From Mustelus asterias (Eukaryota): a stretch of 64,000 nt of DNA. Of the stretch, positions 3,821 to 50,375 are shown one piece after another. Location of the stretch: the NCBI RefSeq assembly GCF_964213995.1, contig NW_027590197.1:620001-684000 (forward strand). Reading direction: 5' to 3'. The position numbers were made by a program, and so were the translations under genes. The stretch's first letter is position 1. Each line of letters opens with the position of its first letter. The notes beneath the pieces were generated by a model that saw only the letters and a program-made list of their open reading frames with translations, was not told where the DNA came from and did no database searches.

Positions 3821-4229
3821 GAATCAAACACCCTCCCCCCCCCCCCCCCCCCCCCACCACCCCGTTACCCAGACCGATCGTCCTCCTCCTCCACCCCCCC
3901 CCCCCCAACCAGAGAATGATCTGACCCTCCTCTCCCCCGCCCCCCCCCCCCCCCCCCACACCACTGATCTGAGTCAGAGAGCCGTTGGAAACACTGAACG
4001 CACTCTTCAGAAGCTGGAGCCCCGATTCAGACTTTTATTGAGCAGGTCCATTACGGCGCGGTTCCGGATTGGCAAACGCGGTGGTAAAGGGGGAAATGCT
4101 GAAAGTTGGGCGGGCAGTTCATTAATTCAATTTAAATCGCCATTGCACCTGTTTTGGGAGCAAAGCGGATCACCGCCATTCCCGGGTTTCAGTAAAGTGG
4201 CAATCTGCAAGGACGCAGGTGTAGATCGC

Positions 4230-4745
4230 ACCCGAGGGACAGGGCACTGAGGAGGGACAGGGCACTGAGGAAGGCCGGTGCCCCAGTCAGGAGGAAGGAG
4301 GGGGGAGGGGGGGTGGGTGTCGGTGTTGGGGGCAGCAGCAGTGGGTGGGGGGACTTTACTCTTCCAACTCTCTTGGGCGCAAACTAAGTCCAGGGTGTCT
4401 TCACCCCCTCCCCACCCACCCACTGCAGATGGAAAACAGTCTAAATTTTCTCCCCCCCGCAAACCTCCCTTTCAGGCACCGACCTTCTGATGAGGGCATC
4501 AGCCCCACTCAGTCCCCTGATGTTGATATGAGGAGGCTGTGCAGTCTTCCCTCCCGTCGGTGGAAAAAAGTAAAGAAAGAAAGTGTCTCCGTGTCCTCTT
4601 TCCCCCTCTCCCTCCAGGGAGAGAGCACCCTCCAGCAGACGGCAGGCAGGCGATAGCTCACCTTCCTCCCCCTTCCTCCCTCCTTCTTGCAGGAAGCCAA
4701 CAAATCGGCAGAAACGATAGAAAACGGGCGTCTCCAGCAAGCAAG
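4230..4745 (-). mobile_element. Tx1-clade LINE 5'UTR fragment
   Basis: Colinear with 16020-16260 and 17080-17175 (GGCCGGTGCCCCAGTCAGGAGG, CCACTGCAGATGGAAAA, GCTCACCT, CGGGCGTCTCC), which lie upstream of the Tx1 ORF1. Confidence 0.75.
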
Positions 4746-4775
4746 CTCTAAAGTGTGTTACTCACAGATGTTGGC

Positions 4776-5591
4776 CTCTTTTTAGGTCAAACCAAATAAA
4801 CAAACTCGGGTTAAATCAGGACAAAGTAAAAGGGGCAGCTCCCCAGAAGGAGGGGGAACAGCCCGAACAGAAATCAAAATACAAAGGAAACTTAAACATC
4901 AAATTAAAATGTGATTATTAGGGTCAATAACGCACCCCAACCCCTGCGGTGCCCAACGGGCGCGGAAGGTGTCAACCTCGCCCGTGGACACCGCATGCTC
5001 CCTCTCCAGGGACACCTGGCCGCGAACGTAGCCGCGGTAGAGGGGAAGACAGTCAGGATGGACGGCCCCCTCGATCGCCCGCTGCCTGGACCGGTAAATG
5101 GCGCGTTTCGCCAGGCCCAGGAGCAGGTTCACGAGGAGGTCGCCTACCCGACCCTCCCCTCCCCGCACCAGGTGTCTGTAGATCAGGAGCATGGGACTGA
5201 AGTGCAAACAGAACATCAATAAAAGGTTCTTCAGGAAAACATAAAGGGAGTGCAGCCGAAGACACACAACATAGACATGGTCCACGGAGTCCACAAGGCC
5301 ACAGAAAGGGCAGTCTTCGGAGCCCGTGAACCAGTGAATCCTACGGTTGTGCGGAACTGCTGCATGCATCACCCTCCACCCCAGGTCCCCGACGTAATTG
5401 GGGGAGATCCCTCCGTAGAGGGACCTCCAGCGGGGACCTCCGCCACCTGGCGGCAACAAGGCTGGCCAACGCTCGGGCGGGATCCCACCGCACGCCTGCG
5501 CCGCCTCGAGTTTGCGTGCAGTTTCGGGGCCGAGCACGACCGTCCTAAGGTCTGGGACGGCTTTGGCCGTGTGCCGGATGGCCAGCCCCGC
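4776..5591 (-). mobile_element. Tx1-clade LINE 3' end (ORF2 C-terminal zinc-binding domain and 3'UTR)
   Basis: ORF 4899..5762 has WRSLY..GDLGWRVMH..CPFCG..DSVDHVYVVC (zf-RVT type CCHC) and LLLGLAKRAIY; stop at 4899; 3'UTR stem-loop ~4820-4865. Confidence 0.85.
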
Positions 5592-5641
5592 GGAAAAGCA
5601 CAGACACACACACAACCGAATGAGTTTTCCAGTGAACAGCC

Positions 5642-5805
5642 AGGTTAGACTCACCGGTCGGTAATTAGCTGGGCTATCCCTATTCCCCTTGAAAATAGGA
5701 ACCACATCTGCAATCCTCCGGCACCTCTCCCGGCACCTCTCCCGTCTCCATCGACGACGCAAAGATCATCGCCAGAGGCTCTGCAATCTCTTCCCTCGTC
5801 TCCCA
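5642..5805 (-). mobile_element. CR1 ORF2 fragment, downstream continuation of the copy at 12161-14339
   Basis: Reads WETREEIAEPLAMIF..NYRPVSLT, resuming where KSPGPDGMYPRLL stops at ~12165. Confidence 0.8.
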
Positions 5806-8800
5806 CAGAACAAAGAACAATACAGCACAAGAACAGGCCCTTCGGCCCCCCAAGCCCGTGCCGCTCCCTGGTCCAAACTAGACCATTCTTTTGTATCCCT
5901 CCATTCCCACTCCGTTCATGTGGCTATCTAGATAAGTCTTAAACGTTACCAGTGTGTCTGCCTCCACCACCTTGCCTAGCAGTGCATTCCAGGCCCCCAC
6001 CACCCTCTGTAAAATATGTCCTTCTGATATCTGTGTTAAACCGCCCCCCCCCTTACCTTGAACCTATGACCCCTCGTGAACGTCACCACCGACCTGGGGA
6101 AAAGCTTCCCAGCGTTTACCCTATCTATGCCTTTTCATAATGTTATACACCTCTATTAAGTCTCCCCTCATCCTCCATCTTTCCAGGGAGAACAACCCCA
6201 GTTTACCCAATCTCTCCTCATAACTAAGCCCCTCCATACCAAGCAACATCCTGGTAAACCTCCTCTGTACTCTCTCCAAAGCCTCCATGTCCTTCTGGTA
6301 GTGTGGCGACCAGAACTGGACACATTATTCAAAATGCAGCCGAACCAACGTTCTATACATCTGCAACATCAGACCCCAACTTGCCATATGCCTTCTTCAC
6401 CACCTTCTCCACCAGTGACGTCACCTTCAAGGATCTGTGGACTTGCACACCCAGGTCCCTCTGCATATCTACACCCTTTATGGTTCTGCCATTTATCGTA
6501 TAGCTCCTCCTTACATTATTTCTACCAAAATGCATCACTTCGCATTCATCAGGATTGAACTCCATCTGCCATTTCTTTGCCCAAATTTCCAGCCTATCTA
6601 TATCCTTCTGTAGCCTCTGACAATGCTCCTCACTATCTGCAAGTCCTGCCAATTTTGTGTCGTCCACAAACTTACTGATCACCCTAGTTACACCTTCTTC
6701 CAGATCGTTTATATAAATCACAAACAGCAGAGGTCCCAATACAGAGCCCTGCAGAACACCACTAGTCACAGGCCTCCAGCCGGAAAAAGACCCTTCCACT
6801 ACCACCCTCTGTCTTCTGTGACCAAGCCAGTTCTCCACCCATCCAACCACCTCCCCCTTTATCCCATGAGATCCAACCTTTTTCACCAACCTACCATGAG
6901 GGACTTTGTCAAATGCTTTACTAAAGTCCATATAGATGGCATCCACGGCCCTTCCCTCGTCAACCATTCTGGTCACTTCTTCAAAAAACTCCACCAGGTT
7001 AGTGAGGCATGACCTCCTTCTCTCAAAACCATGCTGACTATCGTTAATGAGTTTATTCCTTTCTAAATGCACATACATCCTATCTCTAAGAATCTTCTCC
7101 AACAACTTCCCCACCACGGACGTCAAGCTCACCGGCCTATAATTACCCGGGTTAACTAACGGGACCACATTAGCTATCCTCCAATCCTCTGGGACCTCGC
7201 CTGTGCCCAGTGACGAGACAAAGATTTGCGTCAGAGGCCCAGCAATTTCATCTCTCGTCTCCCTGAGCAGCCTTGGATAGATTCCATCAGGCCCTGGGGA
7301 TTTGTCAGTCTTTATATTCTCTAACAAACCTAACACTTCCTCCCTTGTAATGGAGATTTTCTCCAACGGTTCAACACTCCCCTCTGAGACACTCCCAGTC
7401 AACACATCCCCCTCCATTGTGAATACCGACGCAAAGTATTCATTTAGGATCTCCCCTACTTCTTTGGGCTCCAAGCATAATTCCCCACTTTTGTCCCTGA
7501 GGTCTGATTTTTTTTTTTCCCCTGACAACCCTTTTGTTCCTAACGTATGAATAAAATGCCTTTGGATTCTCCTTAATCCTGTCTGCCAAGGACATTTCGT
7601 GACCCCTTTTTGCTCTTCTAATTCCCCGTTTGAGTTCTTTCCTACTTTCTTTGTACTCCTCCAGAGCTCCCTCCGTTTTTAGCTGCCTGGACCTAACATG
7701 CGCCTCTTTTCTTTTTGACCAGTCCCTCAATTTCCCTGGTTATCCACAGTTCTCGAATCCTATCCTTTTTTACAGGCACATGCCTGTCCTGTGGCCCTAA
7801 CAACTGTTCCTTAAAAGACTTCCACATGCCAGATGTGGATTTATCCTCAAACAGCCTCTCCCAATCAACAGCTGCCAATTTCAGCATAATCCCACTAAAG
7901 TTAGCCTTCCCCCAATCCAACACCTTACCCTTGGGACACCACTCATCCTTTTCCATCACTATCCTAAAGCTAACAGAATTGTGGTCACTATTTGCCACAT
8001 GTTCCCCTACCAAAACTTTGAAGACCTGACCGGGCTCATTCCCCAGTACCAGGTCCAGTATAGCCCCCTCTCTAGTCGGGCTGTCTACATATTGTTCCAA
8101 CGAACCCTCCAGTACACATTTTACAAATTCCTCCCCATCCAGAGTACCTGCCCTCAGCGATTTCCAGTCTATACCAGGGAAATTGAAGTCTCCCACTACA
8201 ACAACCCTATTTTTCCTGCACCTATCCAGTATCTCCTGACATATCCATTCTTCCACTTCCCTTGGGCTGTTGGGGGGCCTGTAGTACACCCCCAACATAG
8301 TGACTGCGCCTTTCCTGTTTCTAAGCTCCACCCAGAGTGACTCGTTACACGACCCCTCTGAATTGTCCTCCCTCTGCACCGCTGTAATATGCTCTCCAAC
8401 TAATACTGCTACTCCCCACCTCTTTTGGCCCCTCCTCTGTCTCGCCTAAAACACTTGTACCCTGGAATATTCAGCTGCCAGTCCGGTCCCTCTTTCAACC
8501 AGTCTCTGTCACCGCAACCACATCCAAATTCCTCGTGCGCATTAAGGCCCCAAGTTCGTCTGTCTTACCTGCTACGCTCCTTGCATTGAAGTATAAGCAC
8601 TCCAGACCTCCAGGCCCAGTGAGGTCATCCTCCCCCAGAGTGCTCTTCTTCTTTGCCAGCCTTGTCCCAGCCCCAAGCTCGTCCCCAGCCTCCACACTTA
8701 TAGACCTAATAGTTTGATCCCCACCCCCCTGCCATACTAGTTTAAACCCCCCCGAACTGCACTAGCAAAGCTCCCAGCCAGGATATTTGTGCCCTTCCAA

Positions 8801-10130
8801 CTTAGTTGTGACCCCTCCCTCTTGTACAGGTGCCATCCTCTCCTGAAAACCTCCCATTGATCTATGAAAATGAAGCCCTCCCTCCTGGACCAGTCCTTTA
8901 GCCAGGCATTCATTTGTGCCAACTCCCTATTCTTAGCCTCACTGGCACGAGGCATTGGGAGCAGCCCAGAGATGGCCACCCTAGTGACCCTACTTTTTAA
9001 CCTATTTCCCAACTCCCTGAATTGCTCTCTTAGGATCCCCCTACTCTTCCTATCTACGTCATTTCCACCAATGTGTATAATGACATCCGTTTCATTATCT
9101 TCCCCTTTTAATATGCCTCCTATCCGCTTGGAGACATCCGTGACCCCAGCACCAGGTAGGCAGACTACCATCCTGGAGTCCTGTTCGCCCCCACAGAATC
9201 GCCTGTCTGTGCCTCTAACTGATGCATCCCCCACCACTATCGCTCTCCTAACCCCTCTCTTCCCTTTCCGGGCCACAGAGCCTGACTGTGTGCCAGTGAC
9301 CTGGTCACTGTGTCTTACCCCTGGAGAGGCACACTCCTCCACACTATCTAAAACAATATACCTGTTTTGGAGTGGGACAACCACAGGTGACCCCTCTTCT
9401 AACTGTTCACTCCCCTCCCCTCTCACACCTGTCACCAAGCCCTTCCTATTTTGAGAGACCACCACTGGAGTCCCCCTTGTACTTTACCCTTCTGCCCTTT
9501 ACTCCTCCTAACTGTGACCCACGTGTCTTCCTCCCGATGCCCCGGTGTAACTAGTTGCCTATAACTCCTGTCAATTTTTCTCCCATTTTCCCTGACTAGA
9601 CTAAGGTCAGCGATCTGCAGCTCCAGTTCCATGACACGGTCCCTCAAGAGCTGCAGTTCCACGCACCTGGCACATATGTGAACCTCTGGGAAGCTAGGTG
9701 TTTGCAGGAACTCCCACATCCCACATCGGAAGCACTGAACTGGCCGATCACTCATACCTGCCCTTATCCTTTATAGGGTTGGGTAAAAAAATAACTAGCC
9801 TTGCCTCGCCCTTTCAGCCTAAGCCCTGTGAGCCAAAGCCCTTATAGTGCACACTCTGCTACCCACTCACTCCACTGCCCGCTCCCGACGCTGCCCACTG
9901 TATAGTGCAGCCGGCTTTTTATGCTCCCTGCGAACCCCCCAGGTAACTGCCTTTTATACTAAGACTCAACCTCCCAGAATCCCCTTCAGCTGACCTCACT
10001 TCCTCAATTCAAAACCCTGAAAAAAGCCCGCGAAATATACTAGGAATACCCTTAAATGAATAATTAAATCACTTCTTTGCTTACTCTCAGCACTCCTGCT
10101 AAGACTCTCTCCCCCAGTCAAACAAAGAGG
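5806..10130 (-). mobile_element. Near full-length CR1 LINE (ORF1 zinc finger/leucine zipper + SGNH esterase; ORF2 APE endonuclease + RT), frameshifted
   Basis: 9432..9755 CxxC..CxxC plus heptad Leu; 8737..9465 IVVGDAS/HIGGND esterase; 7693..8379 YRPP/GDFN/LDL/SDHN endonuclease; 6353..7528 RT with QGSVLGP and FVDD; 3' tail AGAACAAAGAAC. Confidence 0.95.
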
Positions 10131-12160
10131 TCGATCCCCACCCCCCTGCCATATTGTTCCAAAGAACTCTCCTGTACGCATTTCACAAATTCCTCCCCAT
10201 TCAGAGGCCCTGCTCTCAGCGATTTCCAGTTTATACCAGGGAAATTGAAGTCACTACAACAACCCTATTTTTCCTGCACCTATCCAGTATCTCCTGACAT
10301 ATCCGAACTCCCACTTCCCTTGGGCTGTTGGGGGGCCTGTAGTATACTCCCAACATAGTGACTGCACCCTTCCTGTTTCTAAGCTCCACCCAGAGTGACT
10401 TGTTACACAACCCCTCTGAATTGTCCTCCCTCTGCACCGCTGTAATATGCTCTCCAACTAATACTGCTACTCCCCCACCTCTTTTGGCCCCTCCTCTGTC
10501 TCACCTAAAACACTTGTACCCCGGAATGTTCAGCTGCCAGTCCTGTCCCTCTTTCAACCAAGTCTCTGTCACCGCAACCACATCCAAATTCCTCGTGAGC
10601 ATTAAGGCCCTCAGTTCGTCTGTCTTACCTGCTACGCTCCTTGCATTGAAGTATAAGCACTCCAGACCTCCAGGCCCAGTGAGGTCATCCTCCCCCAGAG
10701 TGCACTTCTTCTTTGCCAGCCTTGTCCCAGCCCCAATCTCGTCCCCAGCCTCTACACTTGTAGATCTAATATTTTGATCCCCACCCCCCTGCCATACTAG
10801 TTTAAACCCCCCCGAACTGCACTAGCAAAACTCCCAGCCAGGATATTCGTGCCCTTCCAACTTAGTTGTGACCCGTCCTCCTTGTACAGGTGCCATCCTC
10901 TCCTGAAAACTTCCCATTGAACTAGGAAAATGAAGCCCTCCCTCCTGGACCAGTCCTTTAGCCAAGCATTCAATTGTACTAACTCCCTATTCTTAGCCTC
11001 ACTGGCATGAGGCATTGGGAGCAGCCCAGAGATGGCCACCCTGGAGGCCCTACTTTTTAGTCTATTTCCCAACTCCCTGAATTGCTCTCGTAGGATCCCC
11101 CTGCTCTTCCTATCTACGTCATTTGCACCAATGTGTACAATGACATCCGTTTCTTTATCTTCCGCTTTTTAAGATGCCTCCTATCCGCTTGGAGACATCC
11201 AGTACCCCAGCACCAGGTAGGCAGACTACCATCCTGGAGTCCCGTTTGCACCCACAGAATCGCCTGTCCGTGCCTCTAACCGACGCATCCCCCACCACTA
11301 TTTCTCTCCTAACCCCTCTCTTTCCTTTCTGGGCCACAGAGCCTGACTCTGCCAGTGACCTGGTCACTGTGGCTTACCCCTGGAGAGTCATCCTCCTCCA
11401 CACTATCCAAAACAATATGCTTGTTTTGGAGGGGGACAACCACGGGTGACCCCTCCACTAATTGCTCACTCCCCTCCCCTCTCACACCTGTCGCCGAGCC
11501 CTTCCTATTATGAGAGACAGCCACTGGAGTACTCTCTGGTACATTACCCTTCTGACCTTTACTCCTCCTAACTGTGACCCACATGTCTTCCTCCCGATGC
11601 CCCGGTGTAACTAGTTCCCTATAACTCGTGTCAATTATTCTCTCATTCTCCCTGACTAGACCAAGGTCAGCAATCTGCAGCTCCAGTTCCGTGACACGGT
11701 CCTTCAGGAGCTGCAGTTCCACGCACCTGGCACAAATGTGGTCCTCCGGGAGGCTAGGTGTTTCCAGGAACTCCCACATCCCACAGCGGAAGCACAGAAC
11801 TGGCCTATCATTCATAGTTACCCTTTTCCTGTATAGGTTTGGATAAAAATAACTTGCCCTGCCTCGCCCTTACCGCCTAAGCCCTCTGAGCCAAAGCCCT
11901 GACAGCTCCCACTCTGCTTCACTTGCTCCACTGCCCGCTCGTAAGTGCTGCCTGCCTTTTAAAGCCAGCAACAAACCTCCCCAGGCCTACTTCCGGTTTT
12001 GAAAAAAAAACCCTCCGATTTTACGCACAAAATTAACTGAAAAAAAAAATAAATCTCCACTAAAAAACACTCTCTCTTACCCTCAGCTCTCTCTGTGGAA
12101 CAGTGAGGCTGAAACCTCCAAGGCAATCCCTTTTTAAAGCCAGCAACAAACCTCCCCAGG
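10131..12160 (-). mobile_element. Second copy of the same CR1 family: 5'UTR, ORF1 and start of endonuclease, 3' part missing
   Basis: ORFs 11309..11815, 10797..11072, 10231..10437 closely match 9432..9755, 8737..9465, 7693..8379; ~31-nt direct repeat at 11957-11987 and 12132-12162 in the 5'UTR. Confidence 0.9.
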
Positions 12161-14339
12161 CCGAGTAACCTGGGGTACATCCCATCCGGACCCGGCGACT
12201 TATCTATCTTGATGCCATTCAAAGATTCCAGCACAACCTCTTTCTTAAAGTCCACATACTCAATCTTTTCAGTCCACCACAAGCCCGCAGTACATCCACC
12301 CAGGTCCTTCTCCTCTGTGAAAACAGAGGCAAAATACTAATTGAGCACCTCTGCCATTTCTACTGGTTCCGTACAGACTTTCCCGCCTTCACCTTTTATA
12401 GGCTCTATTCCATCACGTCTCATCCTTTTACTCTTCACATATTTATAGAATGCCTTGGGGTTCTCCTTAATCCTACCTGCCAGGGCCTTCTCGTGACCCA
12501 TTCTGGCTCTCCTAATTTCCTTCTTTAGTCCCTTCCGACAAGTCGTATACTCTTCTAAATCCCTATCTTTGCCAAGCTCTGAGTCTTTTGTACGCTTTCC
12601 TTTTCTTCTCGACTAGGTCCCGCACAGCTTTCGTGCACCACGGTTCCTTTAACTGACCAACACCTCCCTGTCTGCTCGGAACATTGTTCTGTAGAACTCT
12701 AGACAGGCATTCCTTGAAAAACTGCCACCTCTCTTCAGTACATTTCCCTGAGAATACCTCCTTCCAATTTACTCCTCTAATTTGCTGTCTAATGTCTTCA
12801 TATTTCCCCTTACTCCATATAAACACTTTCCTGGCTTGCCTGATCCTCTCGTTTTTTCTAATGCAAGCCTAAAGGAGATAGTTATGACCGCTATCCCCAA
12901 GATGCTCTCCCACTGAGAGATCTGACACCTGTCCAGGTTCATTGGTCAGTATCAGATCAAGTACAGCCTCTCCTCTTGTAGGCTTGTCCACATGCTGTGT
13001 CAGGAAACCCTCCTGAACACACCTAATGAACTCTTTCCCATCCAATCCCCTTACCCTCGGGATATTCCAATCTATGTTTGGGAAATTAAAGTCTCCCATC
13101 ACAACAACTCTGCTATTACTGCATCTCTCCAGGATCTGTTACCCTATCTGCTCCTCCACCTCCCTGTTACTATTAGGCGGCCTGTAGAAAACTCCCAGCA
13201 AAGTGACCGGCCCCTTTGCACTCTGTACCTCCACCCACAGAGACTCGGTGGACAATCCCTCCACAGCATACACCTTCTCTACAGCTGTGACACTATCCCT
13301 GATCAGCAGTGCCACTCCACCCCCTCGCTTACCTCCCTCCCTGTCCTTCCTGAAACATCTGAATCCCGGCACCTGGAGTATCCAGTCCTGTCCCTGAGAC
13401 ATCCAAGTCTCCGTAATGGCCACCACATCATACTTCCAGGCATCGATCCACGCTCTGAGCTCATCCCCTTTATTCACTATACTCCTGGCATTAAAGTAAA
13501 CACATCTCAATCCTATGGTCTGAGCTCTCCCCTTAATTCCCTGTCCATCCACCCTCTTGCACTGCCTATAACCCTTCTCTGTTTGCGAGCGACCTTCCTC
13601 ACTCTGATCCCCTCCCCCCAACCTATCGAGTTTAAACTCTCCCCAGTCGCCTTCGCCAACCTTCCTGCCAGGATATTGGTCCCCCTGGGATTCAAGTGCC
13701 ACCCGTTTTTTGTGTACAGGTCACACTTGCCCCTAAAGAGGTCCCAATGGTCCAGGAACCTGAATCCCTGCCCCCTACACCAGTCCCTCAGCCACACATT
13801 CATCCTCCACCTCACTCCATTCCTGCCCTCACCTTCCCATGGCACAGGCAGCAATCCTGAGATTACTACCTTTGCTTTCCTCCTTCTCAGCTGTCTCCCT
13901 AATTCCCGATACTCCCTTTTCATGACCCCTTCCCCCTTCCTTCCCACATCAGCGGTACCAATATGTACCGCTACCTCCGGCTCCTCTCCCTCCCACCTCA
14001 GGATTTCTGGGATTCGCCCAGCGACATCCTGGATCCCGGCCCCAGGGAGGCAGACCACCATCCGAGACTCCCGCCTGCCTCCGCAAAATCGCCTGTCCGT
14101 CCCCCTGACTGCCGAGTCCCCGATTAATACTGCCTTCCCCTCTTTTCTTTAGCCCTCTGAGTTACAGGGCCAGACTCCACCCTGGAGACACGGCCACTGC
14201 TGCTTCCCCCAGGCGGGCTGTCCCCCCCAACAGTACTCAGGCAGGAGTACTTGTTGTGTAGGGGCACATCCACCGGGGTGCCCTCAATCACCCGAGCTTC
14301 ACCCTTCCTGGCCGTCACCCACTTGGCCTCCTCCCGTGG
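12161..14339 (-). mobile_element. CR1 LINE of a different subfamily (ORF1 esterase, endonuclease), 5'-truncated and interrupted
   Basis: ORFs 13513..14061 (esterase), 13139..13702 and 12869..13102 (NARS/ITETW/YRPP/GDFN). Confidence 0.9.
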
Positions 14340-14747
14340 ACCACCTGATGATAGGGACACGAACATTGGGGTGTTGCCCCAGTCCCCCGACATGCTAAAG
14401 AAGAACTCTGGGTTGTAACCGGTCGGGTGGAACGGAGCCGCGGGGGCCCCGCTGCCACCCGGCCCCGGGGACTCCTCGCCGGGGGACTGAGGCAGCACAG
14501 GCTTCGATTTACAGGGTGCCTTGCCCCCTTTTTTCAGGGGACAAGGCACAAAGACAGGTGGGGGCACGGCAGGAGATGACTCACAAGGGGGGAGGGGCAC
14601 GCAGACCTCGAACTCCACGGTGCCCGAGGGGCCCCGCCTCTTTTTGTTAACCTGCCCTCGGGCAGGTGAGGCCCCTCGCCCTCTGCCCCTCTTCGCCTTG
14701 CTGCACCCCCCCTGTCCCCCCCGTCATGTCCCCCCGAGGTGGCGGTG

Positions 14748-15848
14748 TCACCAGTTTTGCCGGCTCGGGGTCGCTAACCCCCCCATGCTTGGGCCCATGA
14801 TCCCGGGCGCCGGACCCAGCACTAGGGCCAGGAGAGCCCACGTGCCCGGTTGATGGTGGTGGGGGGGGGGGGCGCAGGTGGAGACTGAGGTGGTCCCCAA
14901 GCCGGCTGCTGGGGTGGTTGGGGTGTCTTCCCTGGGGGCCGGGGTTCCGGTACCCCCCTTCTTTTTCGTGGGTCCCTTCTGGGCCTTTTGGCCGCGCGGG
15001 GGCTCCGCTCCCCCCCCGCCGGCAGCTGAGGTGGCAGCTGCTGCCGGCGGGGGCTCCGCTCCCCCCCCGCCGGCAGCTGAGGTGGCAGCTGCTGCCGGCG
15101 TGGCCTCCCCTCGCGGGGGGGCAGATGGTACTCGCTTGGGGGGAGAGGGGGTTGCGGTGCCAGCTGCGGCCGCCTTGGGTTGGTGGTCGGCGGCCTTGGA
15201 GACGGGGCAGTTTTTCCGCACGTGCCCCGCCTCCTTACAGGCATGGCACCGCACACCGTCCGCGGACCAAAAGACCCGGTACGTGGTCCCCTCGTGGGGG
15301 ACATTGAACCCTCCCTCCAGTTCCTCCTCCCGGGCCAGGCGGACAAAAACCTGGCGCCGGAAGGAGTATATGTGGCGGAGGGAGGGGTCCCGAAGGCCGA
15401 GCGGGATCGGCTGCACCCCGAACCTGACCTCCCCCAGTAGATGGAGGTGGGGGAGGAGGAGCTCACTCGGTAGGAAGGGCGGGACGTTCGATATTACTAT
15501 CTTGTGGGCGGTGGCCTCCAAAGGGTCCACCGCCAGGAACGTCCCGCCCACCGTGAGCCCCTTTTCCAGGGCGAGGCGAACCGCCCGCTCGGCCTTCAGG
15601 AAGAATACGGCCCGGCCGTACATCTTTGAGGCCGCGACAATGGCTGAGGGGCCGACAACCCCAGCCATTGCCTTAACGCAGGCCTCGATAGACATGTCGG
15701 GGTGGGCGTAGCACTTCACCCCGAGCTGCCGCGTGATTAAAGAGAATGGCGGCAGGGCCTTGGGAGCGGCGGGGGCTCTGGCAGCCGCCACGCCCGCATA
15801 GGTGGGCCGAGAAGGCCCTGCCACCGGCGACGCTGGTGATGTCGCCAT
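14748..15848 (-). CDS. Tx1-type ORF1 gag-like nucleic-acid-binding protein (probably frameshifted near C-terminus; continues in 14124..14618 frame)
   Basis: YAGVAA, ASKMYGRAVFFL, ISNVPPFL, SFRRQVF, CHACKEAGHVRKNC zinc knuckle; 51-bp tandem duplication at ~15000-15100. Confidence 0.8.
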   Translation of the reverse strand: MATSPASPVAGPSRPTYAGVAAARAPAAPKALPPFSLITRQLGVKCYAHPDMSIEACVKAMAGVVGPSAIVAASKMYGRAVFFLKAERAVRLALEKGLTVGGTFLAVDPLEATAHKIVISNVPPFLPSELLLPHLHLLGEVRFGVQPIPLGLRDPSLRHIYSFRRQVFVRLAREEELEGGFNVPHEGTTYRVFWSADGVRCHACKEAGHVRKNCPVSKAADHQPKAAAAGTATPSPPKRVPSAPPRGEATPAAAATSAAGGGGAEPPPAAAATSAAGGGGAEPPRGQKAQKGPTKKKGGTGTPAPREDTPTTPAAGLGTTSVSTCAPPPHHHQPGTWALLALVLGPAPGIMGPSMGGLATPSRQNW

Positions 15849-16239
15849 TGTATCAGGGGAAGTGCTACGCCCACCCCGAGACTGCCCAGATGCACGGCAG
15901 GGCGTATGTGGGATGGGGAAGATAAGGCAGGGTGGGGTAGGCGGGGGAGGGTGTAGGTGCTCTCTCCCCGGAGCGAGAGAGGGAGAGAGGAGGTTGGAGG
16001 AGCAGGAGGGAGATGAGGCACAAGGCCGGTGCCCCAGTCAGGAGGGAAAAGGGGAGGGGGTGCCGGTCCCGGGGGCAGCAGCAGTGGGTAGGGGAATTAG
16101 GAAAAGGCCTTCACCCCCCCCACTGCAGATGGAAAAGAGACAGTCCAAACGCCTTCGCCCCCCCCCTTCTCCTCCAGTCACTCCCTGTCCTCTCTTCCTC
16201 CCTCCCCCCGGGGAGAGCGCACCCTCCAGAGGCCGGATG

Positions 16240-17090
16240 GCAGGCAAGCAGGCAGTCAGGCAGTCCAGACGGCAGGTAGGCCAAATGGCAAGCAGGCAGG
16301 CAGGCAGTCCAGACGGCAGGCAGCCCAGACGGCAGGCAGGCAGGCAGTCCAGACGGCAGGCAGGTAAGCAGGCCAGACGGCAGGCAGGTAAGCAGGCCAG
16401 ACGGCAGGCAGGCAGGTAAGCAGGCCAGACGGCAGGCAGGCAGGTAAGCAGGCCAGACGGCAGGCAGGCAGGTAAGCAGGCCAGACGGCAGGCAGGCAGG
16501 TAAGCAGGCCAGACGGCAGGCAGGCAGGTAAGCAGGCCAGACGGCAGGCAGGCAGGTAAGCAGGCCAGACGGCAGGCAGGCAGGTAAGCAGGCCAGACGG
16601 CAGGCAGGCAGGTAAGCAGGCCAGACGGCAGGCAGGCAGGTAAGCAGGCCAGACGGCAGGCAGGCAGGTAAGCAGGCCAGACGGCAGGCAGGCAGGTAAG
16701 CAGGCCAGACGGCAGGCAGGCAGGTAAGCAGGCCAGACGGCAGGCAGGCAGGTAAGCAGGCCAGACGGCAGGCAGGCAGGTAAGCAGGCCAGACGGCAGG
16801 CAGGCAGGTAAGCAGGCCAGACGGCAGGCAGGCAGGTAAGCAGGCCAGACGGCAGGCAGGCAGGTAAGCAGGCCAGACGGCAGGCAGGCAGGTAAGCAGG
16901 CCAGACGGCAGGCAGGCAGGTAAGCAGGCCAGACGGCAGGCAGGCAGGTAAGCAGGCCAGACGGCAGGCAGGCAGGTAAGCAGGCCAGACGGCAGGCAGG
17001 CAGGTAAGCAGGCCAGACGGCAGGCAGGCAGGTAAGCAGGCCAGACGGCAGGCAGGCAGGCAACAGGCAGGCCGGGCAAGGCAGGCAGCA
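16240..17090. repeat. 28-bp tandem array (CCAGACGGCAGGCAGGCAGGTAAGCAGG)n in Tx1 5'UTR
   Basis: 23 perfect units 16397-17040, preceded by 24-bp and degenerate units. Confidence 0.97.
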
Positions 17091-17284
17091 GCTCACCTCC
17101 CTCCTTCCTCCCCGCAGGGAGCGAAAAACAAACAAACCCAACAAAACAAAAACAAAAACCGGGCGTCTCCGTGAGCAAAAACGAGAAAAAAAAATAAAGG
17201 TACTCACAAAAAAAAGAAAAGAAAACAAACCCACAGTTTCCGCCCGGCTCCGACCCGGGGCCCCCCGCGTCTCGGGCGAACGTG

Positions 17285-17867
17285 AACTCACCCCACCCCG
17301 GAAACAAAGTGCAGGCGCTGCCCCAGAGGAGGCACGTTTCAGGCCGTCTGAAGCTCAATTCTCATTCAGAGAGAAGCAGCAGCAGCTTTGCTGGGCACGA
17401 GTGAGCAGCTGAACAAGCTCATTGCCCACTTCCGCATTCAGACAATAGGGGAGCTCTGATTGGCTGGAGGACCCGAGCCCTTCCGGTCCTTCCACTCTTC
17501 CCATTGGCCAATACCTCAGCATGAAGGTCAAAGGTGGGCACTCCCTCGCACATGCGCAGAGTCCCTTCTCCCTTGGACATGCGCAGTCCTAGGCCAGGGG
17601 TGGAGGGGGAGATCACCGAGCGGCTTCTCGCTCTGGCCGGAGCCGTCAGCCGGTTGCCTGGAAACCTTGGCTCGAGGAGGTGTAGGGGGAGGGGAACAAT
17701 GGTGGGGGCGGGGCTCCCGGGTCCGCGCGCCCGGGCCTGCACACTGGAACCCGGAGACGTCACCGCGTAGAATTCTGATTCCTATTGGCTGATTCAGGCA
17801 GCGCTCCGTTGTGACGTCACAATGCGGACGGTAGCCAATGAGCTTCAGAGCGAAACTCCCTCCTCTG
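17285..17867. promoter_or_regulatory. CpG-rich bidirectional ZNF-type promoter with an exon-1 on each side
   Basis: Multiple CCAAT boxes, GC box 17704-17715, NRF1-like CATGCGCA twice, CRE TGACGTCA 17812-17819; homologous to 34594-34690 and 49930-50370; minus-strand donor GTGAGT at 17286-17291. Confidence 0.75.
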
Positions 17868-18042
17868 TCCATCCTCTACCGCGGCTCCGTTCGCGGCCGG
17901 GTGTCCCTGGAGAGGGAGCATGCGGTGTCCACGGGCGAGGTTGACGCCTTCCGCGCCCGCTGGGCACCGCAGGGGTCGGGGTGCGTTATCGACCCGAATA
18001 ATCACATTTTAATTTGATGTTTTTAAGTTTCCTTTGCACTTT
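17868..18042 (+). mobile_element. 5'-truncated Tx1 3' fragment inserted in ZNF-type exon 1
   Basis: Near-identical to reverse complement of ~4880-5045 (LYRG.VRGRVSLEREHAVSTGEVD.FRARWAPQG..NNHILI*). Confidence 0.9.
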
Positions 18043-19178
18043 GTACCATGCCTCGGGACATCCTTTCTTGCAGCGTATCAGGTAGACAACGTTGGCCGAA
18101 TTGCAAGAGCATGTACCGTGTACCTGGAGGATGGTGTTCTCACGTGAGATGATGGCATCTGTGTCGATGATCCAGCACGTCTTGCAGAGGTTGCTGTGGC
18201 AGGGTTGTGTGGTGTCGTGGTCACTGTTCTCCTGAAGGCTGGGTAGTTTGCTGCGGACAATGGTCTGTTTGAGGTTGTGCGGTTGTTTGAAGGCAAGAAG
18301 TGGGGGTGTGGGGATGGCCTTGGCGAGATGTTCGTCTTCATCAATGACATGTTGAAGGCTCCGGAGGAGATGCCGTAGCTTCTCCGCTCCGGGGAAGTAC
18401 TGGACAATGAAGGGTACTCTGTCCACTGTGTCCTGTGTTTGTCTTCTGAGGAGGTCGGTGTGGTTTTTCGCTGTGGCGCGTTGGAACTGTTGATCAATGA
18501 GTCGAGCGCCATATCCTGTTCTTGTGAGGGCATCTTTCAGCGTCTGGAGGTGTCTGTTGCGATCCTCCTCATCCGAGCAGATCCTGTGTATACGGAGGGC
18601 TTGTCCCGAGGCATGGTACATTGGGGAAACCATGCAGACGCTGCGACAACGGATGAATGAACACCGCTCGACAATCACCAGGCAAGACTGTTCTCTTCCT
18701 GTTGGGGAGCACTTCAGCGGTCACGGGCATTCGGCCTCTGATATTCGGGTAAGCGTTCTCCAAGGCGGCCTTCGCGACACACGACAGCGCAGAGTCGCTG
18801 AGCAGAAACTGATAGCCAAGTTCCGCACACACGAGGACGGCCTCAACCGGGATATTGGGTTCATGTCACACTATTTGTAACTCCCACAGTTGTGTGGACC
18901 TGCAGAGTTTCACTGGCTGTCTTGTCTGGAGACAATACACATCTTTTTAGCCTGTCTTGATGCTCTCTCCACTCACATTGTTTTGTTTCTTAAAGACTTG
19001 ATTAGTGTCTTTATAAGCTCTGTTTGTGAACAGAATTCCCAAACACCTGAAGAAGGGGCTTAGAGCTCCGAAAGTTTGTGTGGCTTTTGCTACCAAATAA
19101 ACCTGTTGGACTTTAACCTGGTGTTGTTAAACTTCTTACTGTGTTTACCCCAGTCCAATGCCGGCATCTCCACATCAT
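18043..19178. mobile_element. Penelope-like element (GIY-YIG endonuclease end + 3' region) with 5' inversion
   Basis: Minus ORF 17986..18678 ends VVYLIRCKKGCPEAWY; plus ORF continues CPEAWYIGET..RMNEH..E..GLNRD; hammerhead-like CTGAAGA..GAAA at 19044-19080. Confidence 0.9.
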
Positions 19179-20237
19179 GATTGCCCAAAGGAGGCAGAGA
19201 GTGGGTATGCATGGGTCTTCTTCTAAATGGAGGTCAGTCACCAGTGGTGTGCCACAGGGATCTGTTCTGGGACCCTTGCTGTTTGTCATTTTCATAAATG
19301 AACTGGATGAGGAAGCGGAGGGATGGGTTGGTAAGTTTGCCGACGACACGAAGGTTGGTGGGGTTGTGGATAGTCTGGAGGGATGTCAGAAGTTACAGAG
19401 GGACATAGATAGGATGCAAGACTGGGTGGAGAAGTGGCAGATGGACTTCAACACAGATAAATGCGTAGTGGTCCATTTTGGCAGGTCAAATGGGATGAAG
19501 GAGTACAATATAAAGGGAAAGACTCTTCGTACTGTAGAGGATCAGAAGGACCTTGGGGTCCAGGTCCATAGGACACTAAAATCGGCCCCGCAGGTGGAGG
19601 AGGCCAAGGTTAAGAAGGCGTATGGTGTGCTGGCCTTTATCAATCGAGAGATTGAGTTTAGGAGTCCGGGGATAATGATGCAGCTATATAAGACCCTCGT
19701 CAGACCCCACTTGGAGTACTGTGCTCAGTTCTGGTCGCCTCATTACAGGAAGGATGTGGAAAAGATTGAAAGGGTGCAGAGGAGATTTACAAGGATGTTG
19801 CCTGGATTGAGTGGCATGCCTTATGAGGATAGGCTGAGGGAGCTCGGTCTTTTCTCCTTGGAGAGACGTAGGATGAGAGGAGACCTAATAGAGGTATATA
19901 AGATATTGAGAGGCATAGATCGGGTGGACTTTCACAGGCTTTTTCCCAGGGTGGAAATGTCTGCTACGATAGGACACAGGTTTAGGTGCTGGGGGTAGGT
20001 ACAGGGGAGATGTTAGGGGGAAGTTTTTCACACAGAGGGTGGTGGGCGAGTGGAATCGGCTGCCGTCAATGGTGGTGGAGGCAAACTCAATGGGGTCTTT
20101 TAAGAGACTCCTGGATGAGTACATGGGACTTAATAGGATGGAGGGTTATAGGTCGGCCTAAAAGGTAGGGATATGTTCGGCACAATTTGTGGGGCCGAAG
20201 GGCCTGTTTTGTGCTGTAGTTTTTCTATGTTTCTATG
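19179..20237 (+). mobile_element. CR1 LINE, 5'-truncated (RT core to 3' tail)
   Basis: ORF 19141..19998 PQGSVLGP, FADD, RPHLEY; tail TTCTATGTTTCTATG. Confidence 0.93.
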
Positions 20238-22429
20238 AGATAGCAGGGGCATGCTGGGCTGAATGGTCTCCACCTGCAGCCTGTGAATCTCAGCCTCCTG
20301 CTTTTGTGCAGGTTAAAAGGGACAGATTTCAGTGCAGCCTCTTCCCTGTATATGTATTTAAAGAGATGGGTTTCTCTTTAGCTCTGAGTGACCGATATAA
20401 CAATTGGTTGGAGGCCCATTTCCCACTCAGTCCTCCAGCACCTTCCCAGTCTCTCTATTAGTGCGACGCCCAAGGCAGTTTCCAAACTGGGGCGCAGGCC
20501 CCATTATTCTCAGCTAAATTCAGCCCTCAGCTCCGTCACCTGGCTGTCATTGACACGAGCAATAGAGAGACAGAAAGGAGCAGCAGGCGCAAATGCGAAG
20601 TCGAAACTTGTGGCTTTAAATGAACTGCTTGGATTTCTGTGACAATCAATAATTTTGAAAAACTGAATTCTAAATCCAGTGAACAAATTAAAGAATCACA
20701 TGACAAAACTTAAATTTTTCTGACTTTTAGTCGAACAAACTGGAAGCAACAATGGCTAAACACTTTTTGTGGGGAACATAGTCCTTAAACTGTCAAATTG
20801 AATTTATCCTTTTACTCTGAACACAATCAAATATCCCACTCAACGGTTATATTTTACTCTGTCTTGGACACCCAATTATTCAAAACCAGTCCAAAGTAAT
20901 TCTTCACTCCCCGAGGGTTTATTTCTACTGTTTTCCTTTTCCAGACTGGCAACCTTTAATCCCAGAACTGTCTTTCACAGTGATGGTTCCCCAGGGCATT
21001 TTCCCAATAACAAAAGCAAGGCGAATCTTCCAGCCTTGTTTCACAATTGTCAGGAATTTGTGACCAACATTGAATATAGGAGCAGAACTAGGCCATTCGG
21101 CCCTTTGAGTCTGCTCCACCACTTATTTGCATTATGGCTGATCTATTTGTCTTGCATTCCACATTCTCATTCTGCAGCCGATACTTTTGAATCTCTTATC
21201 CAACAAGAATTGGTACAAAGGCAAAATTCTGCTGTTGCTGGAATCTGAAACAAAAGCAGAAAATGCTGGACAATCTCAGCAAGTCCGACAGCATCTGTAA
21301 AGAGAGAATAGAGACAACATTTTGAGTCAGGATGAATCTTTGTCAGAGCTGAAGACAAGGAAAATCGGACAAAATTTATCCTGTGAGGGTCAAGAATTGG
21401 GAAGCAATCCATTAAACCTCCTCTGAACCACTTTCAATGCATTTGTATCATTTCTTGAATAGGAGACAAAGCTGCACCCAGTTTTCAAGATGCAGTTTCA
21501 GCAACGCCCTGCATAACTGAAGCAGAACATCTTTACTTCTATGTTCAATTTCTCTCGTAATAAAGGATTGCATTCCATTTGTAAGAAGTTTAATTTATTT
21601 GTACTAAGATTTATGGGGGTTCTCTTGTTTACAATAACCTCCCCAATTGTAAATCACACCAAGTTCCAGTGTCTTAACCATATGGCAAGACAGAACAATT
21701 TAAATGGTGAATTCAGAAAGTTAATTAACCATTAAAAATGTAACAAGTCAGAACGATAAAAGGTAAAGTATCGATTAACAGTTAATAGAGAAAGCTTAAC
21801 TTTAACAATTGAACAGACTTCTCTCCATCCCTCTCAGACCAGGACATGAAGTGACCGCTCCAAAAACATGGATAACTTGTAAAACCAACGGCTCTCAACA
21901 CCTCTCTGTAAACATCTCTCCCTCCACCTCTTTTTACCAAATTGGCTTCTCAAGACTACTTTTTTATACTTTAAAAATGTCAAAAGCCCATCTTAGCCAA
22001 TTCCCATAAATCTTCAATTATAAACTAAAATAGACATGAGTTTTCAGATGATTTGAAAAGAAATGAACTGTCTGCTGAAAGGATTAACTTTTCTACAGAA
22101 CCTAAAGGGATGGGGAGTGAGCAGCAAAAAATTGGCACACAATTACATCATTTTACACAAGTATAAAAATCAAAACAAACTCGATTGTAAACTTCAGCTC
22201 TTCATTTTTTTGTTATATTCCAGAACCTATTTACTTTAATTTGATCAGTTTTTGTTAGGGATGGACAACTTCTGTTCTTTACAAACTGCTTCACTCATTT
22301 TGTTGATTCTACATGGGCTCGAGAGTCAGAAGCCAGACTTTATCATCCTTATCCTTTTTCCCCTTTTGCCACCACTCCCTCTGTTTTGCGGGAGGGTCGT
22401 GGGGTTTCCAATCAGAACTAATCATTTTA

Positions 22430-22610
22430 TCATAAAAGTTAAATACTGTGGATGCTGGAATCTGAAACAACAACAGAAAATGCTGGAAAATGTCAGCAGG
22501 TCTGACAGATCTGTGGGGACAGAATAGAGCCAATGTTTCAAGTATGGATGACCCTTCATAAGAGCTGTTATGAAGTGTCTTCCAGACTCGAAACGTTGGC
22601 TCTATTCTCT
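22430..22610. mobile_element. Short Penelope-derived element (second family), partly palindromic; other copies ~21218-21360, 27188-27372, 39025-39205, 41680-41812, 45550-45730, 61604-61680, 63770-63870
   Basis: GCTGGAATCTGAAACAAAA..CAGCATCTGTGGAGAGAGAATAGAG; hammerhead-like consensus CTGATGAAGGGTCATCCAGACTCGAAACG. Confidence 0.65.
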
Positions 22611-23237
22611 AATAATTTTATCAATAAGTTTCTTGTTCTTAGTTCCAAATGGCAGGTAAGAGACCTGTCCGGTCCCCACTCGAGCTCTGATTTTTCACTG
22701 GCCATGCTTGGGTCGGATTGCAACCATTAGAATCCACTCTCAGACGTCTGCGTTTCAGTCCAGTGCTACTTGGAGTATGCTGGCACTTCACTGAATATCG
22801 GATCACAAGTCCCTCACAGTTCTTATCACAAATTTGGGATATAATAATTTAAACAATGCCTGAGAACGCTTTTTAACTTCTTAACCAACTACCTACCACT
22901 GTTTGTTGATTGGTCAGATCTCCTCTTCACAGATTCGGGAATCTCAGCTGCTGAACACCAGCCGGTCCTGGAATAAGTTTAATTCTAACTCATTCTGAGT
23001 AAATATTCTCACCAGGTCCTCTGTCTGGGCCCTGCTAAGCAGCTTTAATGGTTCATGATTGCAGAAACTGAGCAGTCACAGGAATGTGGTCAAGATAGTC
23101 CAGTCCCATAATGCCTCGCATTCAATCTGCAGTCCTTCAATTATAACAGAATATGTGGCTGTATGTAGCTGCCTCGGCCGTGGTCAACCCCAACACTGCC
23201 TTCTTGAACTGCTACAATGCCTGAGGCGTAAGTACAC

Positions 23238-23510
23238 TGTAAGAAGTCTCACAACACCAAGTTAAAGTCCAACAGGTTTATTTGGTAGCAAACACCACTA
23301 GCTTTCGGAGCGCTGCTCCTTCGTCAGGTGAGTGGGAGTTCTGATCATAAAAAATCCTGTTTTGTGAACAGAACTTCCACTCACCTGACGAAGGAGCAGC
23401 ACTCCGAAAGCTAGTGGCGTTTGCTACCAAATAAACCTGTTGGACTTTAACTTGATGTTGTGAGACTTCTTATGATGCTTATCCCAGTCCAACGCCGGCA
23501 CCTCCACATT
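23238..23510. mobile_element. Palindromic Penelope-derived mini-element with two opposed minimal hammerheads
   Basis: Arms ~23240-23350 and ~23362-23472; flanking duplication GTAAGTACA (23228-23236, 23513-23521); empty sites in paralogs at ~46315 and ~38075. Confidence 0.85.
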
Positions 23511-24276
23511 GTGTAAGTACATCCACAGTGATATTAGGGAAAGATTTCCAGCTGCACATTCCAGACTTTCCCTAGACTGTAGATGGATACCAGATTGATA
23601 TATTCCATTCAACCACACCCAAGATGAGTTATTCCAATTCCTTTATTGTCCAGGACAATATATTCACAATATCTTTGAAACAGAATTTAAACATTCCCAT
23701 TTGATTTCAGGTATTAACATATTCTGTTAGTTTGTTCTTTATTGTCAATGTCAGGCTGGGGTTGTTCTCCTTGGAGCAAAGGACAAGATTCTGACAGGTT
23801 TAGATAAGGTGGACAAAGAAAAACTGTTCCCATTAGCTGATGGGAGAAGGAGAGGGGGTCACAGATATAAAGTTTCGGGTCAGAGATGTAGGAGGGGATC
23901 TGAGGAAGAATATTTTGATGCAGCGAATGGTAATGACCTGAACGCGCTGCCTACGAGGGTGGAGGAAGTGGAGACAATAAACAATTACAAAGGAAATTGG
24001 ATGGGCATTTGGGGGGTTTCAAACAGAAATGCTGACTAAATATCTCTGAACTTCCTCACACTCTGTCACTCGGTGATCCGTGTGAAATTTGAAACCATGT
24101 ATTCGCAACAAGACACAAAGAGCATCAGCCCACTGGAGGCCAAGTTGTGAGACTGGTCAGTCCAGCAGAAAGAAACCCTCCGACCCTCCCCATTGACCAA
24201 CTGTGAGAATGAACAAAATGCAGTCCTGGATGTAACTGAGAGCAGAAACAATCACAGCAGAATCCAACCCCTGGAA

Positions 24277-33649: not shown

Positions 33650-34690
33650 TAATCGCTTGTGAACTTGTTGGTGTCTCTGGAGGTTGGATGACCGATTGAA
33701 TTCCTTCCCACACACAGAGCAGGTGAATGTCTCTCCCCAGTGTGACTGCGCCGATGAGTTTCCAGTGCAGATGGGAACCTGAATCCTTTCCCACAGTCCC
33801 CACATTTACACAATTTCTCCATGGTGCGGGTGTCCTTGTGGCTCCAGGCTTGACAGTCAGTTCAGTTACAACATAACATGGGTGCGGTCTCTCTGCTGCA
33901 ATGTATTTTCAGGCTGTTTAACTGGTTAAAGTTCTTTCCACAGTCACTCAGGTGTGTGCATGTTTCTGTGTGTGTGTGTGTCTCAGTGCTTTTCCAGTCA
34001 CACTGTTGTTTAAAATCTCCTGAAGCAGACAGAGCAGAGAAACATTTCCATTCTAGGTTCAAAGGTCGATGATATTCAGGTCCCAATGAACTGAGTGACT
34101 ATGTTAGATTTTGATGTGAAGTTTGATTTGATAATTGTCTTTAAATCTTCACCTTCTGATACCCTGCAAAAGGAATTTACAAAAGTCATCAGTGTCAGTA
34201 CAGGATAGAAATTCAGAACGGACAATTCCAGTTTCTATGGAACATTCGTTCCTCTCTCATTCCCCAAAAGCTGTGAATCTCCATCCCACACACTCTCCCT
34301 CCATTCTCACTCTGCTGTATCTAATATTCACCCTCCCAATTCTCCTGAAGGTGCTGATTGAGGCTGATTGACAGATCCACGCTCGCTGCTTCCTGTCCTG
34401 GGCACAGAGAGAGCTGAAAGTTTCCATGCAGGCTGCCAGACAGATAAATGTCTACATTACTGGAGTAAAAATGTGTGGAATGTACAGACCGAATTCACTT
34501 CCTTTCCCTTCAGTTGCTGCAAGTCCCCAATTTCCCCCAGAATGAGAAAAGAAATGGAAAGGGGGAAACATTGATTTCCTCCCAGATGTTGCCCAGAGGA
34601 GGGAGTTTCACTCTGCAGCTCATTGGACAACTTACGCATTGTGACATCACAATGGAGCCCTGCCTGAATCAGCCAATAGGAATCAGTCTC
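33650..34690 (-). pseudogene. ZNF pseudogene with promoter, exon 1, exon 2 and a 2-finger frameshifted last exon
   Basis: CCAAT/CRE-like promoter 34620-34690, exon 1 ~34585-34620 with mutated donor, exon 2 ~34332-34432, [10 protein letters not shown] at 33822. Confidence 0.8.
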
Positions 34691-38330: not shown

Positions 38331-38652
38331 GGGGCAGGATTGTGGTCCAGTGGTTAGCACTGCTGCCTCACAGCGCCAGGGACCTGGGTTTGATTCCCGG
38401 CTTGGGTCACTGTCTGTGTGGAGTTTGCACATTCTCCCCGTGTCTGTGTAGGTTTCCTCCGGGTGCTCCAGTTTCCTCCCACAGTACAAAGATGTGTGGG
38501 TTAGGTGGATTTGCCATGATAAATTGCCCCTTAGTGTCAGGGGGACTAGCTAGGGTAAATGCATGGGGTTATGGGGATAAGGTCGGTAGGATTGTGGTTG
38601 GTGCAGACTTGATGGGCCGAATGGCCTCCTCCTGCACTGTGGAGATTCTATG
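38331..38652 (+). mobile_element. HE1-type SINE
   Basis: Full head, V domain and CR1-like tail; absent from paralogous site ~22978. Confidence 0.88.
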
Positions 38653-49892: not shown

Positions 49893-50375
49893 TTACTCAC
49901 AGATGTTGATGATAGAAGAAATTTTAGTCTGTCTGAAGCTCAATCTTCACTCAGACAGAAAGCCGCATCAGTTTTGTTGAACAGACAATGGAAGCTCACG
50001 CAGCAATTGACACAAGGCCCGGACTCTGATTGGCTGGAGGACCAGCACCCATCCGGTCCTCCACGCGTTGCCATTGGTCAATCTGCCGCATTTAGACTAT
50101 GAGGGGGCGGAACCCGAGCCCACGTGGGGGTGGGCGGGGCTTTGACCGCCAGCCGCGCTGAGCTGGTGTCCAATCCGCAGTGTGCTGCTTCTGTAACCAG
50201 TGATATTGCTGCCAATGGGACACTGTGTGCTGGGAACGCCTCTCTGAGTCATTGTGACGGCACAATGGAGCCCTGCCTGAATCAGCCAATAGCAAACACT
50301 GTGCTCCGCGGTGACGTCTCCGGGTTCAGGCGCGCAGACCCGGGAGCCCCGCCCCCACCCATTGTTCCCCCAGTC
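49893..50375. promoter_or_regulatory. Bidirectional CpG promoter and exon 1 between divergent ZNF genes
   Basis: Several CCAAT boxes, GC boxes at ~50103, 50130, 50348, TGACGTCT; donor CAACATCT|GTGAGTAA on minus strand; homologous to 17345-17810. Confidence 0.78.

Follow-up and report, generated by a model that had tools for sequence, protein, structure and literature searches.

We analysed a 64,000-nucleotide (nt) stretch of the Mustelus asterias genome (contig NW_027590197.1, positions 620,001 to 684,000; hereafter the window), in which Tx1 retrotransposon copies occupy both arms of a predicted bidirectional promoter of zinc-finger (ZNF) genes. Comparison with the whole 3.68-Gb assembly shows that this Tx1-clade long interspersed element (LINE) has integrated on many separate occasions, at two set positions of a predicted non-coding ZNF first exon. 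A preliminary description of the window had proposed that the element targets the exon-1 splice donor region of a multicopy ZNF family; it lacked the second site, and also the two head components (tRNA-Val and captured exon) and the tandem arrays described below.

The first position, site A, lies 10 nt before the predicted exon-1 donor: in 86 matches the 3' end of the element is followed by the right half of exon 1. Site B is found in the same predicted exon, ~45-50 nt upstream of site A, and has 123 matches, 15 of which form a single 132-bp satellite on contig C89. Usage shifts between subfamilies, from site A in the older to site B in the younger. A backward-read control gave 0 matches, and all but one of the matches listed for each site fall outside contigs C1-C11. 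The preliminary description had expected 3' flanks to be enriched at ZNF first exons; genome-wide clustering at the same sites is far above chance, whereas most flanks are heterogeneous. It had also put forward the donor as the recognised feature, but GT is absent at the donor of 29/86 filled sites and of 46 of the 100 empty sites listed (229 intact sites in total), and the donor is therefore not what the element recognises.

Could such clustering arise without targeting? An element with a 4-nt motif that enters open promoters might leave a few insertions to be multiplied by duplication or conversion, with long copies surviving there. Counts are inflated by segmental duplication and by recombination between copies. 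In the window, the junction at 4776 between elements A and B (Table 1) is repeated in 11 of the 30 best loci, that of element D (17868) recurs in L206, and the 10.7-kb spacing from element C to element A recurs on C88 and C109. The window junctions are thus partly products of segmental duplication and, both being duplicated, could not by themselves prove targeting. Loci L203 and L212/L214 share an interruption at element nt 5425 but differ in 3' flank (site B versus site A), showing that copies in different ZNF genes recombine; satellites of the 3' end inflate the counts further, and nearly all 3' ends on the three largest contigs are off-target (below). Independence was scored strictly, by requiring that both exon halves flank the insert. 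The 30 sampled site-A loci have 25 distinct upstream breakpoints (some being later interruptions) and contain at least nine independent events, seven short (23, 34, 46, 50, 86, 132 and 389 nt) and two full-length. Site B has at least five such events, namely a 179-nt copy bounded by a 14-bp duplication and four full-length copies, the latter spread over different paralogues. So varied a set of truncations, together with full-length copies, at the same nucleotide of different paralogues is beyond what duplication can make. Moreover, a motif of five positions has ~7 million genomic sites, so that the 1,066 target modules would be expected to receive ~0.015% of insertions; the observed share is 6% raw and ~2% after collapsing (9 events per 30 loci). 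Multiplication without targeting is accordingly improbable.

What follows the element was classed at 18 site-B loci: host exon in 13, the element's own head in four and satellite in one. Three 3'-end satellites formed after self-insertion have units of 255 bp (L284, C71:14939900-14943800), 132 bp (C89:2431509-2433785) and 194 bp (C165:554050-554463). Site-B copies in L178-L186 often lie in exons with an altered site A (loss of the GCC/GGC start or CAAC), a possible pattern of escape and shift.

The element is a LINE with two open reading frames (ORFs). The 1297-residue ORF2 of L204 matches PF03372 and PF00078 above cut-off, an apurinic/apyrimidinic-type (APE) endonuclease followed by reverse transcriptase (RT), and is 55% identical to ORF2 of Xenopus Tx1L over residues 1-760 (endonuclease plus RT) and 64% in the RT. 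An RT tree of 22 rows, with no L1 rows and an outgroup on a very long branch, places it in a clade with Tx1L and turtle, sturgeon and stingray proteins with 100/100 support, the stingray RT being nearest. Judged by its proteins the family belongs to the Tx1 clade, as the preliminary description had it. Matches to zf-CCHC in ORF1 (E 0.0045) and to zf-RVT at the C-terminus of ORF2 (E 0.013) are both under cut-off, as is the zf-RVT of Tx1L itself. The element terminates in AAAAAGAGG and has no poly(A); the assembly contains 1,400 exact matches to its last 20 nt. Marks of target-primed reverse transcription (TPRT) are present: 5' truncation, with a median length of 208 nt for the ends on C1-C3 (the three largest contigs), and target duplications of 13-16 bp. 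Five copies without duplication (L015, L016, L044, L252, L253) carry A runs at the 5' junction, perhaps untemplated additions. A turtle gene model (P0024) has a KRAB-ZNF fused to a Tx1 RT at its 3' end, one case among many turtle Tx1 fusions.

If the target module were part of a transposon or other repeat rather than a gene exon, the element would resemble its closest named relatives, which target DNA transposons (Tx1L in Tx1D, Tx1-Mar in Mariner-N4; PMC4494074), and the predicted exon status is read from anatomy. However, only two of the 1,066 occurrences of the downstream module marker fall on C1-C11, one of them being an ectopic Tx1 flank; eight pairs among 96 modules are divergent and less than 1 kb apart; and ZNF arrays lie downstream. 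These arrays begin 0.8-1.7 kb from the module in the window and in L222, and lie on the same strand within 1.5 kb in 4/10 empty loci, the other six having none within that distance. That the module is some other repeat is thus very improbable. ZNF ORFs of the window and of L222 begin only in the exon downstream, which would place both sites in the predicted 5' untranslated region (UTR). Four sequencing runs mapped to L222 extend over all 30 bins, introns and repeats alike, and among the joints listed none links the donor to a downstream exon; these data are uninformative on expression.

The preliminary description had further suggested that insertion knocks out genes thought to repress transposable elements (TEs). 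Among the modules listed for C23 and for C71 up to 11.3 Mb (96 in all), 11 have a Tx1 3' end directly upstream, an occupancy (~11%) that does not demonstrate wholesale knockout. The duplication keeps GTGAG upstream of the insert in L147, L148, L285 and L286, but not in L150, L158, L160, L166, L167, L287 or element D of the window. Insertions may silence the gene, be tolerated, or be spliced out. TE repression by ZNFs lacking KRAB has been shown in zebrafish, in a paper whose accessible text covers neither sharks nor Tx1 (bioRxiv 2022.11.29.518450); for the ZNFs targeted here such a role is extrapolated from zebrafish and mammals.

Targeting is real but leaky. On C1-C3, where 97 of 98 3' ends could be read, 95/97 have unrelated, non-ZNF flanks and the remaining two, with ZNF-type flanks, are ectopic; the proposed targeting of a multicopy ZNF family thus stands as nucleotide-precise, repeated insertion, and falls as exclusive specificity. 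Sites A and B together hold ~209/1,400 (15%) of the family, a figure whose numerator and denominator come from slightly different search patterns and which lies under the criterion of >20% of flanks used in PMC4494074. For the young class with GTC flanks the share at site B is 123/283, above that criterion (raw, with satellites in both counts). Long copies are distributed differently. The ORF1 marker occurs 179 times, and C1-C3 carry two markers against 98 3' ends. By location rather than flank, 86 of the first 100 markers listed lie in ZNF clusters (regions with listed modules or target-flanked copies; C115 provisionally assigned), and the concentration of long copies behind ZNF promoters agrees with the promoter neighbourhood noted initially. 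All seven long dispersed copies examined are 5'-truncated. The 3' flanks inspected by eye consist of ZNF modules, of further copies of the element or of diverse sequence; none was found to be U2, 5S, tRNA spacer, microsatellite or Mariner.

Some dispersed loci are of separate interest. L041 (C1:59087395) comprises a 307-nt Tx1 end with ~155 nt of ZNF flank, cut by another LINE; no duplication was found, and 3' transduction is possible. L129, L177 and L189 contain sequence derived from 5S rRNA that lacks 11 nt (Rfam scores of 87 and 79 bits). In L129 (C26, 5S at 2359-2467) this sequence forms the head of a 2-kb Tx1 3' piece enclosed by a 13-bp duplication, and in L177 and L189 it is part of a ZNF exon module, downstream of a copy at site B. 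These pieces possibly represent a 5S-headed chimera or a SINE3-like element moved by the Tx1 family.

The bases around the insertion point provide some information on how sites are chosen. Off-target sites on C1-C3 have C at +2 (95/97), A at +3 (89/97) and mostly A at +4. Clean 13-16 bp duplications accompany 17/95 off-target copies, and 12 of these 17 sites have C at -7, while 13 have T at -5 (binomial p ~3e-5 and ~5e-5, uncorrected), both matching site A; the 71 off-target copies without duplication show no upstream signal. The enrichment at -7 and -5 points to a protein reading upstream of the nick. A single-nucleotide polymorphism (SNP) in the 3'UTR predicts the first flank base with few exceptions (56:1 versus 6:23, p 2e-14), and the bases so predicted are positions at which ZNF paralogues differ. 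L096, on a large contig, consists of a Tx1 3' end, 145 nt of the next head and a poly(A), with a short target duplication. Its structure is that of a retrocopy of read-through RNA, and such RNA must therefore have existed. The off-target motif is too weak to account for a >100-fold ZNF enrichment; an extra factor must add to it, be it closer matching over the full length of the site, accessible chromatin or the nearness of source copies.

We consider it probable, with moderate confidence, that an endonuclease together with short RNA pairing and transcription from the ZNF promoter drives repeated insertion at the two exon-1 positions of this ~1,000-member family. Full-length copies would be transcribed from the ZNF promoter, the RNA running past the 3' end into exon 1. 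The endonuclease would read bases on both sides of the nick, the exon presenting the short motif, and the read-through tail would pair with the nicked target and help to select the first bases, such that a subfamily would prefer sites resembling the flank of the copies from which it arose. In full-length cDNA the host leader would be copied as well, thereby bringing site B into the element's own head and allowing arrays to form by self-insertion. Off-target copies, mostly truncated and promoterless, would be dead ends, and the ZNF exon the breeding niche.

Several observations weigh against this explanation. Some 85% of 3' ends lie elsewhere, mostly as dispersed 5'-truncated copies at a short motif, and 14 of the 100 listed ORF1 copies are outside ZNF clusters. 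The module is a transcribed, spliced ZNF first exon by prediction. The upstream signal is replicated in the older class by just two sites (C at -7 in 2/2, T at -5 in 1/2). At off-target sites the match to the exon is at background by the fifth base (C in 14/59), so that any RNA-DNA pairing is short; long pairing is ruled out. Finally, 9-17% of endonuclease residues are different between copies at site A and copies at site B, and a change of enzyme alone could thus explain the shift of site.

This last point leads to an explanation in which the endonuclease alone sets specificity, a relaxed enzyme having evolved from site A to site B with no role for RNA in site choice. Positions -7 and -5 carry information beyond the reach of RNA pairing, the genomic copy already has the motif in most duplicated sites, subfamily endonucleases differ (including Y/F near a predicted hairpin), and target choice is held to be mainly set by the endonuclease (PMC4494074). 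Against this, the first-base preference (G/C versus A versus T) tracks ZNF paralogue flanks at single-base resolution within a family whose RTs are 89-99% identical, the element lacks a poly(A) tail, and L096 is a retrocopy of read-through RNA. Four of 25 duplications differ in the first six bases, although that search forbade later mismatches. On balance we regard action of the enzyme alone as somewhat unlikely. Overwriting of target bases by the RNA tail was considered for the same 4/25 duplications and rejected: the search was biased, and an unbiased set has one mismatch among 17, at position 12.

The 5' end of the element has several parts. In old full-length copies a tRNA-Val, almost complete, directly follows the 14-nt target duplication and is called by ARAGORN in L285; L286 and L287 have the same type of junction without a call (calls at a lowered threshold were often spurious and were set aside). 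In L285 the tRNA-Val is followed by a degenerate site-A copy, donor included, and this is the GTGAGTA that had been read as a host donor; most aligned full-length heads have an internal GTGAGTA (altered in L121, deleted in L207). There are 105 tRNA-Val-like matches, mostly on ZNF-cluster contigs (C12, C71, C87-C172 and others), several in 2.68-kb tandem units. In young copies ~65 nt of ZNF exon precede a decayed tRNA. In L204, L207 and L208 this exon head differs from the host exon at the 3' side, and the exon segment is therefore carried by the element. Because site B marks the start of the captured head, older heads can serve as targets for new copies; intervals of ~7.1 kb on C75, C91, C108, C112, C122, C170, C218 and C390 fit arrays made by self-insertion, and L127 is such an array seen directly. 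A more far-reaching proposal is that the lineage breeds only in ZNF first exons, that its 5' end was built up in layers (target/donor copy, then tRNA-Val, then host exon), that its own GTGAGTA splices the element from ZNF mRNA, and that site A gave way to site B when a different 3' flank was inherited while site A was eroding in certain paralogues. As a whole we think this unlikely. If it held, the element would have switched target in a way heritable through RNA, and would have done so within a gene family of putative transposon repressors.

Known elements share parts of this behaviour. Tx1L (Xenopus laevis, YTX2_XENLA) likewise has two ORFs, an APE endonuclease, RT, a putative C-terminal zinc motif and a target preference, but its target is the DNA transposon Tx1D (PMC4494074, PMC6719617), whereas the present family uses a predicted protein-coding first exon and has many off-target copies. 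Crocodilian Tx1-Mar/SINEU elements are similar in their partial preference (13-90% of flanks), expected 16-nt duplication, tandem copies around the duplication, recurrent small-RNA 5' heads and proposed transcription from the flank; they differ in targeting Mariner-N4, and their U1/U2 heads are on non-autonomous elements (PMC4494074). The present family, unlike SINEU, is an autonomous LINE with tRNA-Val and a host exon segment (the RT tree was built without Tx1-Mar sequences). R2 in 28S rDNA offers a parallel of inferred co-transcription and 3' read-through pairing, and in R2Ol a 4-nt read-through tail raises insertion (PMC6530143). R2 differs in its restriction-like endonuclease, strict specificity and RNA-gene target. 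Within the Tx1 clade, Mutsu and Dewa show sequence preference for small-RNA genes or spacers. Keno, Kibi and Koshi also have sequence preferences, for small-RNA genes and spacers or microsatellites (PMC4494074); the teleost proteins found here are 39-43% identical and none is named as one of these five.

The preliminary description knew of no precedent, which was too strong: ingi/RIME are LINEs with a hot spot at one site in trypanosome RHS genes, a multicopy protein-coding family suggested to control retroelements (PMC7563717). For Tx1, the accessible text of PMC4640811 and PMC6719617 gives no ZNF-type target, and a literature search, with Repbase and the survey of Kojima and Fujiwara (2004) beyond its reach, yielded no account of ZNF genes as targets of a Tx1 element. 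For Tx1 elements, the exon next to the promoter in a large vertebrate family of protein-coding genes would be an additional target class. Having both target states and hundreds of off-target sites in one genome makes target change by enzyme or by RNA flank directly testable. Recombination between copies at matching paralogue positions could shuffle ZNF promoters and aid cluster turnover, and if transposon repression, known for zebrafish ZNFs, extends to these genes, the element resides within the very system that controls it.

The window was mapped against L127, a natural full-length copy with an intact 1297-residue ORF2 (Table 1). The strings quoted in the preliminary description are present at their coordinates, and the left half of site A does adjoin a 5'-truncated Tx1 piece (17873-18043 aligned to element nt 6782-6952). 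The string GCCAACATCTGTGAGTAA is also present at 4758-4775, but it is followed by another Tx1 5'UTR and not by a ZNF intron, so the junction is a duplicated or element-borne target copy and not, as had been read, a host donor. The pieces at 4776 and 17868 are separate copies, as claimed: they overlap in element coordinates, are 93.6% identical and lie on opposite strands, the overlap excluding rearranged halves of one insertion. A 5' end placed at ~17175, downstream of a host GTGAGTA, did not hold up, for the left element starts at 17374 and the GTGAGTA sits in an element 5'UTR common to dispersed full-length copies in other ZNF genes. At 34583-34609, TGGGAG stands in place of a GT donor.

Table 1. 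Features of the window (coordinates relative to its first nucleotide; o/e, observed/expected).
Feature	Position	Strand	Remarks
Element B: 5'UTR of an older copy, without tRNA head	4200..4757	-	
Site-A right half joining A to B	4758..4774	-	duplicated target, or target copy carried by an element
Element A: 3' end of an older-type copy, internal deletion	4775..5592	-	end ...AAAAAGAGG, without poly(A)
Other LINEs, nested: RT, endonuclease and GDSL-like ORF pieces	5593..14354		most of Tx1 ORF2 gone
ORF1 of element C, truncated	14355..15848	-	mosaic
28-bp tandem repeat in element C 5'UTR	16243..17088	-	also in L124, L125, L127
GTGAGTA internal to element C	17201..17207	-	within degenerate ZNF site-A/donor copy in 5'UTR
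Decayed tRNA-Val-derived part of element C head	17236..17305	-	52/69 aligned letters match genomic tRNA-Val
Element C 5' start at site B: captured ZNF exon-1 segment of young subfamily	17310..17374	-	
Predicted bidirectional ZNF promoter, Tx1 in both arms	17375..17867		CpG o/e 0.65, GC 0.62, 5 CCAAT boxes; homologous to 34594-34686 and 50024-50370
Site-A left half of rightward exon	17852..17867	+	
Element D: 5'-truncated, joined without target duplication	17868..18043	+	copy stops at 18043, without its 3' end
Empty site A, variant without GT donor (TGGGAG)	34583..34609	-	degraded ZNF array ~0.8 kb downstream
Empty exon-1 end with GT donor consensus	49893..49908	-	ZNF ORF (first ATG 48129) 1.7 kb downstream

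Element C runs from 17374 to 14355 and element A from 5592 to 4775, both on the minus strand. The 5' part of element C is 98.7-99.3% identical to young copies and falls to ~94% further down; element A is 96% identical in the same comparison. C109:128900-136500 was compared as an uninterrupted counterpart of C plus A and ruled out. The tRNA-Val alignment in the head of element C scores 53, against 37 for the best of 300 shuffles; there is no Rfam tRNA match in the window, and the sole Rfam match in 17100-17500, to CrcZ, was put down to chance.

Three further features of the window were noted. Tandem LINE 5' halves are nested in the Tx1 composite (8088-9884 versus 10150-11940, 92% identity). ZNF gene bodies are duplicated, inverted and direct, at 86-95% (20237-24818 versus 36741-42788 and 45296-47911). 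A second CpG-rich, promoter-like stretch lies at 61850-62260 (o/e 0.95, 4 CCAAT) and is followed by an 87-bp tandem repeat at 62282-62556.

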